Below, in pieces: positions 57,337 through 62,702 of a DNA stretch of 64,000 nt. The DNA lies in contig CAWEJW010000003.1 in NCBI GenBank assembly GCA_963809535.1, forward strand, positions 25,987-89,986. Direction: 5' to 3'. A model generated the notes under the pieces. The model saw only the letters and a program-made list of their open reading frames with translations. It was not told where the DNA came from and searched no databases. The position numbers were made by a program, and so were the translations under genes. Position 1 is the stretch's first letter; each line of letters starts with the position of its first letter. Source of the stretch: an uncultured Actinomycetes bacterium. Lineage in GTDB: Bacteria > Actinomycetota > Coriobacteriia > Anaerosomatales > CAVRZR01.

Positions 57337-57420
57337 GGAGAATTCCGAGATTTCTTCTTTGGCCGCGCAGAGCGGGTACAAACACAGCGCAAGATAATGC
57401 GCCGAGGGGAGGTGTCACGG

Positions 57421-57723
57421 ATGCAGGAGCACGCACCAATGCAGGAGGAAGAGGTCGGCGTCGTTACCCACTACTGGACGGAGTTGGGGGTCGCAGGAAT
57501 CCACCTGTCAGCTCCCCTCGACGCGGGAGATCACATCCACGTGGTTGGACACACGAGCGACTTCGAGCAGGCCGTCGGGTCAATGGAAGCGGACCATCAG
57601 CAGATTCTGCACGCGGGCGCGGGAGAGGATGTCGGCGTGAGGATGGCCGAACACGCGCGTGAGCACGACCACGTCTACAAGCTTGTCCCGTCGGACGTGG
57701 GAGGCCAGGGCACGGAGCTCTAA
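57421..57723 (+). CDS. Small EF-Tu domain II-like beta-barrel protein
   Basis: VG.VTHY...GVA, GD.IH..GHTSDF.Q.V.SM, VYK; GGAGGTG RBS. Confidence 0.8.
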   Translation: MQEHAPMQEEEVGVVTHYWTELGVAGIHLSAPLDAGDHIHVVGHTSDFEQAVGSMEADHQQILHAGAGEDVGVRMAEHAREHDHVYKLVPSDVGGQGTEL

Positions 57724-57755
57724 CGGCGTTCGACGGAGTGTCAGACACGATGCAC

Positions 57756-57791
57756 AAAGAGAGAGGACCGCTCGATTCGAGCGGCCCTCTC
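57756..57791 (-). terminator. Intrinsic terminator
   Basis: Minus strand GAGAGGGCCGCTCGA-A-TCGAGCGGTCCTCTC followed by TCTTT. Confidence 0.75.
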
Positions 57792-57876
57792 GTCCATCGC
57801 TGCGGGACAGCGACGATGATTCGTTCGCTTGGTGGCTTCGCTTCTGGGGCCATATGCGCCCCATAGCGCCGCCGTC

Positions 57877-57945
57877 CTAGGCGGTCTCTACCTCCGCGAT
57901 ATCGACGGTGGACAGGACCAGCGCAGCGATGTTTGTACTACTCAA
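57877..57945 (-). CDS. Putative 22-aa sORF MSSTNIAALVLSTVDIAEVETA
   Basis: TTG start directly after AGGAGGTGATCCAGC; flanked by a candidate -10 element and a terminator. Confidence 0.5.
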   Translation of the reverse strand: MSSTNIAALVLSTVDIAEVETA

Positions 57946-58080
57946 CGCTGGATCACCTCCTCGGTCGGCGGGTCGCCGGATCGCGCCCTCGGGTTGCACC
58001 CGTGGCGGTCAGCCTAGCAAGAGACGAGCCGACCAGCAAGGCTAAAGGCGACTCCTGAGGCGCAAGCACGCACGCGGGCG

Positions 58081-59097
58081 CTAGGCGGATTCGGTCACCA
58101 GGGCGCTGTCGCATTGGAGCTCGGTTGGCGCTTCCACGTCGATCCTGCCACGGACGCGTTCCCGGCCGCGCGGGCAACGGTTGCCCCACGCGTCGAGGAA
58201 CTCGCCCTCCTTGAGCACGACCACGACCTCGCAGTCGTTAGCGCAGCCGCCGCACTCGTGACCGCGCGTCACGAAGTCCAAGTCGCCCACTGAGAAGTCG
58301 AAGTACGATTCCTTGCCGCTCTCCATCGCGACGATGGCCACGCCGATCGCGCCCATCAGGTGGCCGTCGTCATCGACGGCCACGTCGAGCCCGGTGATCT
58401 CGCGGAACGAGCGCACCACGCCCACGTTCTTGCTCACCCCGCCCTGGAACACTGCTGGCGAGAGGATCTCCTTGCCCTTGCCCACGTTGTTCAGGTAGTT
58501 GATGACGATCGCGTTGCAGAGCCCGGCGACCAGGTCCTCGGTCGGATGACCCATCTGCGCCTTGTGGACGAGATCGGACTCGGCGAACACGGTGCAGCGG
58601 CCAGCGATCTTCGTCGGCTTGTTAGAGCGCATCGCATACTCGCCGAACTCCTCGACTGCAACACCGAGACGCCTCGCCTGCGACGAGAGGAACGACCCCG
58701 TGCCAGCCGCGCACAGCGTGTTCATCGCGTAATCGACCGGAACCCCATCGCGCACGATGATGACCTTGCTGTCCTGCCCGCCTATCTCGAAGATCGTACG
58801 TACGTCCGGGTAGCGTGACAGTGTCCCGACGGCGTGAGCCGTGATCTCGTTCTTCACCACGTTCGCGCCGAGCACGGCGCCGATGAGCTCGCGCGCCGAG
58901 CCGGTGGTCCCGACAGACATCACGTGGACGTCAGCACCTTCCAGCTGGCTCTCGAGCTCATGGAGGATCTGCTTGACCGCGCGCACCGGGTTGCCCTCGG
59001 TCCACAGGTAGCAGCGCGCAAGGACGTTGAGGTCGCCGTCGATCACGACAGCCTTGCTCGAGATCGAGCCGACGTCGACACCGAGGTATGCCTTCAT
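58081..59097 (-). CDS. 2-hydroxyacyl-CoA dehydratase activase (BadF/BcrA-type ATPase)
   Basis: GVDVGS, TGS.R, EITAH, IGGQDSK, CAAGTGSF, CTVFAES; C-terminal CGGCANDC. Confidence 0.93.
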   Translation of the reverse strand: MKAYLGVDVGSISSKAVVIDGDLNVLARCYLWTEGNPVRAVKQILHELESQLEGADVHVMSVGTTGSARELIGAVLGANVVKNEITAHAVGTLSRYPDVRTIFEIGGQDSKVIIVRDGVPVDYAMNTLCAAGTGSFLSSQARRLGVAVEEFGEYAMRSNKPTKIAGRCTVFAESDLVHKAQMGHPTEDLVAGLCNAIVINYLNNVGKGKEILSPAVFQGGVSKNVGVVRSFREITGLDVAVDDDGHLMGAIGVAIVAMESGKESYFDFSVGDLDFVTRGHECGGCANDCEVVVVLKEGEFLDAWGNRCPRGRERVRGRIDVEAPTELQCDSALVTESA

Positions 59098-61493: not shown

Positions 61494-62702
61494 ATGGCGC
61501 ACGTTCGCTCCCTCTTCTTCCGCGGCCCACTCGCCGACGTCGAGAACAAGGCCATCACTGCCTACAAGCTCGGCAGGCCGAGCGACGTCATCTGGAACAT
61601 CACGAACCGCTGCAACTTGCTGTGCGACCACTGCTACATGGCAGCCGATGGCCACGTCCGCCCGAACGAGCTCACGGATGAAGAGACCATCGCCCTGGTG
61701 AACCAGATGGGCGAGAGGAAGCTGCCGGCCTTGTTCCTGTCCGGCGGCGAGCCGATGATCCGCAACAACTTCTGGGAGATCCTCGAGCTCGCCCGCTCGT
61801 ACGGGATTCGAGTCACCGTCTCGACCAACTGCACGAAGATGGACCGTGAGGCTGCCAAGCGCCTCAAGGCGAACGGCATCGATTGGATCGCGACCTCGCT
61901 CTACGGTCCGGACGAGTTCCACGACGCAATGGTGCGCGTGCCGGGTACCCGGCAGAAGGTCGTCGAAGCCATCAAGATCTTGCGTGAGGAAGGTGTCGGA
62001 GTCGCCATCAAGACCGCGATCAGCAAGGACACCTGGCCGTACGTCTACGACCTCATCCAGGAAGCACGAGACCTCGACTGCGGCCTCATCTACTTCTGCG
62101 ATCTCATCACGTCCGGACGCAGCGAGGGTGAGGACGACGGCCGTATCTCGCCGGAGCAATGGCGCGAGCTCGCCGACTACATCATCGACGACCTCATCGC
62201 CGGCCAGGAGAGCGGCGTCAAGAGCCTGGAGTGGGACATCGGCGCGATGCCCTCGTTCATCCCCTACGTCGCCGAGAAGCTCATCGAGCGCGGCATCGAC
62301 GTCTCCAACGGCCTAGAGCGCCTCAAGATCGTCTCGGCGTGTCCCGTGGGCAAGGGACACATGAACATTAACTCGGAGGGCGGCATCATGCCGTGCCAGT
62401 TCGCGCAGGACTGGACCATCGGCACCGTCCGCGATATGACGCTGCAGGACGCGGTCGCCGAGCTCTACCAGCTCGACATCCAGGACGCCGAAGGGATGTG
62501 CGCTCCCGAGGCATGCGAGTACTCCCGCATCTGTCGCGGATGCCGTGCGAAAGCGTGGCAGCGCACCGGTGACGCCATGGAGGAGGACGTGACGTGCCTG
62601 CTCCACGCCGAGACGGACCGTTCAGCCCTCGTCGAGCGCATCGCTGAGGCTCCCGATTTCGCGCGCTCGGCGCCGTGCGCGGCGCCCGGCGCCTGTGGCT
62701 AG
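61494..62702 (+). CDS. Radical SAM/SPASM protein (NirJ/AhbC-like)
   Basis: WNITNRCNLLCDHC, SGGEP; SPASM cysteines CPVG..PC..C...C....CRGCR..C. Confidence 0.9.
   Translation: MAHVRSLFFRGPLADVENKAITAYKLGRPSDVIWNITNRCNLLCDHCYMAADGHVRPNELTDEETIALVNQMGERKLPALFLSGGEPMIRNNFWEILELARSYGIRVTVSTNCTKMDREAAKRLKANGIDWIATSLYGPDEFHDAMVRVPGTRQKVVEAIKILREEGVGVAIKTAISKDTWPYVYDLIQEARDLDCGLIYFCDLITSGRSEGEDDGRISPEQWRELADYIIDDLIAGQESGVKSLEWDIGAMPSFIPYVAEKLIERGIDVSNGLERLKIVSACPVGKGHMNINSEGGIMPCQFAQDWTIGTVRDMTLQDAVAELYQLDIQDAEGMCAPEACEYSRICRGCRAKAWQRTGDAMEEDVTCLLHAETDRSALVERIAEAPDFARSAPCAAPGACG

Follow-up and report, generated by a model that had tools for sequence, protein, structure and literature searches.

A small RNA gene with an over-long Shine-Dalgarno sequence in uncultured Coriobacteriia, likened to the rre mRNAs

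The closest described counterparts of the gene that we report here, a small RNA gene on the minus strand of a 64,000-nt stretch of DNA from an uncultured Coriobacteriia bacterium of the order Anaerosomatales (assembly GCA_963809535.1, contig CAWEJW010000003.1, positions 25,987 to 89,986; this whole stretch is called the window below), are rreB and rreR. The first is a 165-nt small mRNA of Bradyrhizobiaceae that carries a 17-nt complement to the 3′ end of 16S rRNA (Hahn et al., RNA Biol 14:1353; PMC5711450). Its short open reading frame (sORF) has 14 codons and a GTG start, the RNA co-sediments with 30S subunits, and its translation is weak owing to the extended Shine-Dalgarno (SD) sequence together with the GTG start. 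A change of this GUG to UAG lengthened the half-life from 10 to 37 min, and a 5′ AAAG extension of the complement was crucial for localisation to the ribosome (PMC5711450). An 18-codon counterpart, rreR, occurs in Rhodobacterales, and the analogues, which were sought as uninterrupted complements of at least 16 nt to the 16S 3′ end upstream of an sORF, are reported there only from four alphaproteobacterial orders; their complement extends as far as the start codon and into it, a GTG except in Azospirillum, where it is ATG, and their function “remains elusive” (PMC5711450).

The essential features of this design emerge from the family to which the gene of the window belongs: they are the complement, a weak start codon, a short frame and masked early codons. 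We hold with moderate confidence that the locus encodes an rre-like small mRNA, about 245 nt in length, which docks on ribosomes, is translated weakly and has a fold that responds to translation. Since its complement is 15 nt long, has no 5′ extension and stops short of the start codon, we file the RNA as one that would work like an rre mRNA and not as a member of that family.

A complement to the 16S rRNA tail and the frame behind it

The hyper-extended SD of the locus, AGGAGGTGATCCAGC, is the exact complement of the 3′ end of the genome's own 16S rRNA, ...GCGGCTGGATCACCTCCTTTCT (16S gene on L001), with 15 Watson-Crick pairs to which one G·U pair could be added on the 5′ side. The initial annotation of this DNA, made from its letters alone, had already equated the 15-mer with the reverse complement of the conserved 16S end, and the comparison with the genome's own gene bears this out. 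In E. coli numbering we take the complemented bases to be 1526-1540, by which the last four nucleotides of the complement would reach into 16S helix 45. With up to two mismatches allowed, the window contains one match to the 15-mer, against a mean of 0.15 in 100 shuffles, 14 of which had at least one; in the 2.33-Mb genome, with at most one mismatch, the 15-mer occurs twice, in the small RNA gene and in the rRNA gene, which leaves a single site outside rRNA loci. Apart from the 15-nt site and the rRNA gene, none of the 5817 GGAGG sites of this genome has a contiguous complement to the 16S tail that is longer than 10 nt, a length found at 15 sites. The predicted duplex between SD and 16S tail has −33.2 kcal/mol, compared with −10.3 kcal/mol for a plain GGAGG control.

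The same region recurs across the order. When a 351-nt region was used as a blastn query against 41 related genomes, 20 of them, from many families of the order, gave matches of 71-85% identity, which is unusually high for intergenic DNA. A pattern composed of the 14-mer, a gap of 13-19 nt and ATCGCT, scanned over one genome per species of all prokaryotes, returned 100 stretches, about half of which belong to the Coriobacteriia family and are labelled uncultured Coriobacteriia, Anaerosomatales or “Actinobacteria bacterium”; the 43 distinct copies taken from the family loci are the basis of the counts on the sORF. Standard annotation misses this small RNA gene, as the initial annotation had anticipated, and a covariance model, R1, that spans start codon to terminator and excludes the SD on purpose recovers it cleanly. 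R1 matches, nearly always once per genome, in 93 of the 146 genomes of the order (67 of the 98 that are at least 90% complete; 48 of 76 genera). A class-wide sample of 151 genomes gave matches in 48, all from the same order, and in none of the 83 genomes from the other seven families in that sample. In five high-quality genomes of the order that lack the element, a search for a substitute hyper-SD site returned, as the only perfect GGAGGTGATCCAG, the one in the rRNA gene. About two thirds of the order's genomes keep the element as a whole, as a rule in one copy.

Two departures from the single-copy state were noticed. One contig (G039:C1) carries two full copies of the 13-codon form described below, 3 kb apart (L124 and L125), and in one of them the complement reads AGGAGGTGATTCAGC, a C-to-T change that is still G·U-pairable with 16S rRNA. 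In G003, a 3′ partial copy (L123, G003:C1:67250-67800, at about 260-430) runs from codon 6 through the downstream helices to the terminator, with SD and start absent; it lies directly after the stop of another open reading frame (ORF), 2.3 kb from the full copy of the same genome.

Among the relatives' copies the 15-mer is nearly invariant and is the best-conserved block of the element, and the gap that separates it from the start codon is 1 nt in 36, 2 nt in six and 0 nt in one of the 43. Once the downstream sORFs are aligned, start, stop and frame are found to be kept in all 43 copies, while each of the two alternative frames is free of stops across this span in nine copies. TTG is the commonest start codon (27 copies), followed by GTG (10) and ATG (6), which makes 37 of 43 with TTG or GTG; the stops are TAG (31), TGA (9) and TAA (3). 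Most sORFs have 22 codons (27 copies), 14 have 13 codons and two have 21, and the alignment traces these lengths to in-frame deletions of 3 and 27 nt. The stop stands at one structural position, 0-4 nt 5′ of a GACGGCG motif. The peptide, with the consensus M[SR]SxxIAAL...E, is acidic, its hydrophobic run comprises only 6-7 residues (IAALVL), and its N-terminal half is better kept than the C-terminal one; in the 13-codon form it reads MSSKCIAAEVSTS.

Layout, fold and expression of the RNA

The minus strand at 58039-57756 very probably constitutes a stand-alone gene with a predicted RNA of about 245 nt, its limits and the −35-like hexamer being read from the sequence. It is flanked on one side by the stop of a BcrAD/BadFG-type activase gene on the same strand (58081-59097) and on the other by a convergent 108-codon ORF (57397-57723, plus strand) that has no Pfam or NCBIfam match. 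The features that the initial annotation had listed on this strand are all present where it placed them, and together with those added here they are the following.

58039-58034, minus strand: −35-like hexamer TTGCTG, with a 17-nt spacer to the −10-like box
58032-58028, minus strand: TCGGC motif, some 10 nt 5′ of the −10-like box, kept in most relatives, across families
58019-58011, minus strand: extended −10-like TGcTAGGCT, TGCTAGGCT; T[CT]GCTA... kept in most relatives
58002-57990, minus strand: P1, 5′ hairpin CGGGU-GCA-ACCCG (helix 1, 91% paired, 2 of 4 pairs changed on both sides)
57993-57832, minus strand: stretch covered at high depth by metatranscriptome contigs, with an Illumina adapter at both ends
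57988-57970, minus strand: P2, hairpin with a bulge, GGGCGC (57988-57983) / GCGaCCC (57976-57970) (helix 2, 98.5% paired)
57961-57947, minus strand: hyper-extended SD AGGAGGTGATCCAGC, complement of 15 nt of the genome's own 16S 3′ end
57945-57877, minus strand: sORF of 22 codons, MSSTNIAALVLSTVDIAEVETA, with TTG start at 57945-57943 and TAG stop at 57879-57877
57931-57922, minus strand: HA 5′ strand CAUCGCUGCG, which is sORF codons 5-8 (98.9% paired with 57804-57795)
57895-57880, minus strand: P5, a second GGAGG (57895-57891) / CCGCC (57884-57880), just 5′ of the stop (helix 4, 93% paired)
57876-57865, minus strand: HB 5′ strand GACGGCGGCG(cu), immediately 3′ of the stop codon (helix 5, 92.9% paired)
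57862-57846, minus strand: P6, variable hairpin GGGGC...GCCCC, seen in the alignment, outside the formal pair count
57817-57805, minus strand: HB 3′ strand (au)CGUCGCUGUCC, pairing with the HB 5′ strand; core CGUCGCUGUC at 57815-57806
within 57818-57795, minus strand: local hairpin H3, CGUCGCUG of the HB 3′ strand / CAGCGAUG (57802-57795), 96.6% paired, almost invariant
57804-57795, minus strand: HA 3′ strand CGCAGCGAUG, next to the terminator, pairing with the HA 5′ strand
57791-57756, minus strand: intrinsic terminator from the terminator scan, 14-bp stem, 3-nt loop, UCUUUGUG; stem 57791-57761, then TCTTTGTG

The fold was obtained with RNAalifold and pair counts on 26 long-form sequences, with slid partners and 500 shuffles as controls. 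As many as 94.9% of the cells are paired, against 38-59% when the partners are slid, 14 of 40 pairs changed on both sides, and none of the 500 shuffles reaches any of these measures; the structured RNA proposed in the initial annotation thus stands up to covariation analysis. Changes on both sides affect 6 of the 7 counted pairs of the terminator (helix 6) and 5 of the 13 pairs of HB. Among their counted pairs, P2 and P5 show one-sided changes only, and P2 switches in addition from G-C to A-U at an uncounted third pair in L006, L012 and L020. In the 13-codon form, P5 reads GGAGGUG / CACCUC, an internal look-alike of an SD:anti-SD pair, and at the place of P6 the relatives have a hairpin of different sequence. 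One detail of the earlier drawing had to be replaced: the second 5′ hairpin, taken there as GGCG-ACC-CGCC, can be formed in the window and is not kept in the relatives, where GGGCGC/GCGaCCC pairs.

The long-range helix HA hardly varies. An exception is L019, where G has become A in the ORF (Ala to Thr) and C has become U in the 3′ strand, so that the predicted HA pairing is kept at the cost of an amino acid. All 26 long-form sequences have ATC-GCT as codons 6-7, and codon 3 is AGT nearly throughout; the frozen GCT deserves attention because drift would be expected in genomes with high third-position G+C. The minimum-energy fold of the window RNA contains HA (−124.5 kcal/mol), and enforcing H3 makes it 4.9 kcal/mol less stable. 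Since start, stop and frame are kept, synonymous sites are frozen and the helices covary, we conclude that both the translation and the structure of this RNA are under selection. Two further helices were considered and set aside. A hairpin CCGCC/GGCGG with the stop in its loop is 84.6% paired and weaker than P5, with 9 of 26 sequences unpaired at one pair. A helix around the start, P3 (CCAGC / GCUGG), is 99% paired and has two CCAGU/ACUGG double changes; it cannot be essential, because the 13-codon form has no P3 3′ strand.

The consensus promoter scan listed no promoter at the −35/−10-like site, which it missed because the −10 hexamer TAGGCT fits the consensus at only three of six positions. 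The TCGGC motif lies too close to the −10-like box for a −35 element; a regulator may bind there, or the motif may belong to a promoter of unusual type. At the other end, the terminator is common, tail-to-tail, to the small RNA gene and to the convergent ORF.

Parts of the stretch are contained in DNA runs from peat, permafrost, soil and sediment. For RNA, four metatranscriptome runs from three studies were compared over 57400-58400 as contigs, which are strandless and give no reliable level. These contigs cover 57832-58004 and little else; word depth over the element is 130-420 in run X16, 140-156 in X17 and 10-14 in X18, against 1-6 in the neighbouring activase region. Illumina adapter sequence abuts 57992 in X16, 57993 in X17 and 57832/57836 in X16, which suggests an abundant species of about 160 nt with its 5′ end inside P1. 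The RNA contig of a relative in X15 begins 13 nt 5′ of the equivalent of 57993, runs through P1 and starts about 5 nt below the −10-like box, a hint that it begins about where a transcript from this box should start. The sole contig over the intergenic region, 58008-58243 from X15, ends at 58008 without reaching into the element. At a likeness of at least 88%, RNA contigs leave 57761-57831 uncovered, which says nothing on the 3′ end because contigs break at variants. We read the contigs as hints, short of proof, of an abundant discrete RNA and of its processing. Along with the promoter-like site, the terminator, the varied neighbours and the order-wide conservation as a unit, contigs confined to the element, strandless and with no mapped start as they are, sustain the earlier proposal of an unannotated transcript of about 250 nt.

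Mechanism and alternative explanations

If the locus is an rre-like mRNA, as we favour, the analogy with rreB gives the following picture. The hyper-SD would hold the 30S subunit much tighter than an ordinary mRNA does, and the over-long duplex, the weak start and HA at +14 would slow initiation and elongation, so that the RNA would sit on ribosomes more than it is translated. A ribosome translating the sORF would have to open HA and, at the stop, HB, and the freed 3′ strands could then refold into the local hairpin H3, which would be the obvious refold because translation of the sORF opens both helices. The switch from HA/HB to H3 would probably couple ribosome occupancy to the processing or decay of the RNA. 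The initial annotation had left the choice between a microprotein mRNA and a 30S-binding RNA; the data are compatible with both halves of that proposal, given the conserved frame, start and stop on the one hand and the 30S-bound, weakly translated rreB and rreR on the other.

Several points weigh against this reading. All of its mechanistic steps are drawn by analogy with rreB, and, with HA and H3 almost invariant, the two-state switch leans on one compensatory change and on energetics. Access to the SD is not guaranteed, given that the mean unpaired probability of the GGAGG core is 0.31 in single-sequence folding of 41 copies, and the last four nucleotides of the complement would presumably need to invade 16S helix 45. 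The RNA contigs, besides being strandless and without a reliable level, include two runs, X16 and X17, from one study. The complement measures 15 nt and not 16-17 nt, stops 1-2 nt short of the start codon rather than running into it, and is devoid of the 5′ AAAG extension that is crucial for rreB. Simple titration of ribosomes is doubtful even for rreB, whose 20-fold overexpression left growth unchanged and whose RNA is, in the authors' judgement, far outnumbered by ribosomes (PMC5711450). Finally, the Acetobacteraceae loci returned by the pattern scan, which score 67-74 bits against the Rfam model of the caulobacter sRNA CC2171 and are members of that family, receive from R1 only 8-20 bits, about as much as terminators alone receive on the wrong strand. 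Nothing beyond SD and terminator is demonstrably common with CC2171, and these scores would not support common descent.

The genomic surroundings of the gene differ between families, without any consistent co-oriented downstream gene; the gene beyond the terminator is convergent in the window, L007, L008 and L017 and varies elsewhere. Only 3 of the 55 family loci have an activase upstream: L005 and L006, which are of the same genus, and L084, which comes from the scan of public contigs. With neighbours so varied and no steady co-oriented gene downstream, the small RNA gene is neither a leader nor a part of the activase operon, and the suggestion that its peptide is tied to an upstream dehydratase/activase operon finds no support. 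A recurrent neighbour does exist, an AhbD/NirJ-like radical SAM/SPASM gene (61494-62702, plus strand, in the window), which is found within 1.5 kb in 15 of the 55 loci (among them L007, L008, L012, L015, L016, L017 and L019), on the opposite strand in all 15. Genes for a methylguanine methyltransferase, rubrerythrin or a CDGSH iron-sulfur protein are often near the linked loci, CDGSH in 7 and rubrerythrin in 3 of the 55 family loci. This recurrence may reflect a shared ancestral neighbourhood of redox genes, and a functional link is possible as well.

Such a link would exist if the sORF peptide were a precursor or partner of the radical SAM/SPASM enzyme and the strong SD served high peptide output, an explanation that we regard as improbable. 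It would account for the close relatives of the window enzyme near loci of several families, in divergent or convergent arrangement, and for a conserved frame whose M[SR]SxxIAAL part is better kept than the C-terminal half, much like a leader and a core; yet the enzyme is never on the same strand in the linked loci, is absent within 1.5 kb from the other 40 and lies 3.5 kb away in the window. Its best NCBIfam matches are the haem-modifying NirJ/AhbD, at 169 bits against cut-offs of 500-515, and its radical SAM domain begins at residue 35, too early for a peptide-recognition domain to precede it. Known radical SAM/SPASM peptide maturases target Cys, Tyr or Trp, residues that the sORF peptide does not contain, and 14 of the 43 copies are only 13 codons long. 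With synonymous positions frozen and the one pairing-preserving change non-synonymous, selection must weigh on the RNA no less than on the peptide. Moreover, the combination of over-long SD and TTG or GTG start would lower translation, as it does in the studied case, rreB (PMC5711450). By orientation, residues and recognition domain, then, the candidate of a ribosomally synthesised and post-translationally modified peptide precursor was rejected. The other explanation that looks to the neighbours, a cis element in the form of a 3′ untranslated region or terminator module of the activase operon, or of a leader-peptide attenuator, strikes us as very improbable. The element does follow the activase stop (58081) directly and on the same strand, it has a short ORF, alternative hairpins and a terminator, and the partial copy of G003 sits right behind another ORF's stop; against this stand the rarity of an upstream activase, the convergent downstream genes named above, the conserved promoter-like region and the RNA contigs, which in X16 and X17 cover the element only and of which the one from X15 over the intergenic region ends short of it. 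No co-oriented gene that could be regulated lies directly past the terminator, and the attenuator was dismissed on this ground.

Explanations that place the function in the RNA itself come closer to the data. The RNA could be an essentially non-coding riboregulator acting in trans, which would cover the anti-SD, either on 30S subunits or on pre-16S rRNA, and shift translation, for instance in favour of leaderless mRNAs, while the sORF would clear trapped ribosomes; this we consider unlikely. The 15-mer, the best-conserved block, is complementary to a universal target, the C-terminal half of the peptide is poorly conserved, the depth of the metatranscriptome contigs is high, and rreB was found on 30S subunits (PMC5711450). 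A pure decoy, however, needs neither start nor frame nor a stop at one structural position, all of which are kept in 43 of 43 copies; the contigs yield no quantitative level, and the rreB results on overexpression and ribosome number cited above tell against such a role too. More remote still is a type I toxin-like mRNA. In hok-type mRNAs a long-range 5′-3′ helix keeps a small toxic ORF untranslated until the 3′ end is processed, and over-long SDs occur in some toxin mRNAs. In the RNA described here a long-range helix likewise masks the early codons and could silence the small ORF until the 3′ end is removed, and the adapter-ended contigs suggest a species of about 160 nt (57993 to 57832) without the 3′ strands of HA and HB. 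The likeness, which the initial annotation had raised, does not extend to the product: the peptide is acidic, with IAALVL as its only hydrophobic run, the 13-codon form MSSKCIAAEVSTS of many species cannot span a membrane, and the element is single-copy and conserved order-wide like a core gene; no antisense gene turned up, though no search aimed at one was made. We think a toxin hardly credible on this evidence. As to a decayed rRNA gene or a chance match, the identity of the 15-mer with the complement of the 16S 3′ end is what would speak for it, and we take it as already refuted. The window has no Rfam rRNA match at the gathering threshold or at E values up to 10, 16S identity ends after 15 nt, no other site of the genome exceeds 10 nt, and in 93 of 146 genomes the sequence around the 15-mer is kept as part of another, structured RNA. 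No rRNA-like sequence flanks the 15-mer, which excludes a decayed rRNA gene, the case that the initial annotation had named as refuting its own reading.

Comparison with CC2171, other hyper-SD RNAs and the rre mRNAs

Over the whole window, Rfam gave no match at the gathering threshold. The best permissive match is RF01867, “caulobacter sRNA CC2171”, with 22.2 bits and an E value of 0.011 in a 501-nt search (26.3 bits for L023), where the gathering score is 75. The parts of both RNAs come in one order: the SD and the start codon are followed by an early ORF that is masked, by CCNCC, which resembles an anti-SD, close to the stop, by GACGG, and by a 3′ strand beside the terminator. The CC2171 consensus begins with cGAAAGGAGGUGAUCCAGUG, and it also has a helix between the first codons and a segment just 5′ of the terminator. 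Homology to CC2171 or to the rre RNAs, sought through the SD-less model, is not borne out by the scores, which remain at terminator level. For CC2171 itself, a preprint states that no condition is known to affect it.

Similar arrangements appear in other groups. In a sample of 401 genomes of the phylum, the 14-mer followed by a start codon occurs in 15 genomes, and a reversed-pattern control in none. A second Actinomycetota family, f42 (L138-L141, in G320, G294, G491 and G359), has cacgcgagR-AGGAGGTGATCCAG, 1-2 nt, TTG and 13-14 codons, with the peptides MHRPNWTREVTVP and MSSRSSWTREVPDR and an internal GAGGTG near the ORF end; R1 does not match these RNAs. In L138 and L139 the downstream GGATCACCTCC is a copy of the 16S tail and could mask the SD. 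A family from Bryobacterales (L025, L038, L076, L077, L093, L100) carries ATCACTGGCGGAAGGAGGTGATCCAG, 2-5 nt, ATG and an 18-codon ORF, MNDSIAGSTSLDGEVAES; an upstream ATCAC can pair with GTGAT inside the SD, and L025, L038 and L100 have no Rfam match at E values up to 0.1. Both families resemble the Coriobacteriia RNA in having AGGAGGTGATCCAG, then 1-5 nt, ATG or TTG and a conserved ORF of 13-18 codons, and differ from it in their peptides and downstream folds. Apart from these, the 14-mer SD stands before two longer ORFs (L151 of G458 and L146 of G549), a Lys-rich one of 42 codons, MAEKKVSPKKPAAK..., and a ferredoxin-like one of 99. In L143 and L144 the 14-mer falls within a long ORF, apparently by coincidence of the coding sequence.

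A wider proposal would take hyper-SD mini-mRNAs as a convergent device of several phyla that reads or sets the pool of free 30S subunits, with the Alphaproteobacteria (in print), one order of Coriobacteriia, f42 of the Actinomycetota and the Bryobacterales as members. A docked 30S subunit would be held at a weak start before HA, and completed initiation would open HA and HB and flip the 3′ end into H3, so that translational capacity would be read out in the fate of the RNA and in a disposable peptide. If its levels are as high as the metatranscriptomes hint, the RNA might also reserve or silence a fraction of the subunits in starving, slow-growing anaerobes. We put this forward as a speculation that is rather doubtful as it stands.

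The comparison with rreB and rreR is the closest. Like them, the Coriobacteriia RNA is probably a free-standing small transcript with its own promoter (a promoter-like site here) and terminator, in which a complement to nearly the whole single-stranded 16S 3′ tail is followed by a weak start codon and a very small sORF, of 14 or 18 codons in the rre RNAs and of 22 or 13 in the Coriobacteriia, whose conservation holds inside a clade and not from one clade to another. Conserved secondary structure, a genomic context that is not kept beyond close relatives and processing products (putative here) are further common traits. The differences are equally clear. The RNA comes from another phylum and is known from sequence and RNA contigs, whereas rreB has been studied experimentally; at about 245 nt it is longer than rreB with its 165 nt. 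Its complement lacks the 5′ GAAAG extension, has no counterpart to UUUCU, reaches 1 nt further 3′ into the helix-45 strand, and, with 15 pairs and a possible G·U, stays below the 16 nt of the rre search; it ends 1-2 nt before the start codon, of which the rre complement includes the first base, and its start is most often TTG. It is further set apart by two 5′ hairpins and by a long-range helix that pairs codons 5-8 and the segment after the stop with the 3′ end.

As far as our literature search shows, the rre-type design has so far been published only from Alphaproteobacteria, and none for Actinomycetota. In the uncultured Coriobacteriia of soil and sediment the same design is an order-wide, mostly single-copy gene that seems highly expressed, and it provides a second, independent sequence set of 43 distinct copies, in which a long form occurs beside a short one and a long-range helix covaries. 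Because the design recurs here with a peptide unrelated to those of the rre RNAs and with a different, more elaborate fold, the comparison suggests that a complement to the 16S tail joined to a tiny ORF is a recurrent answer to a general problem of the ribosome.

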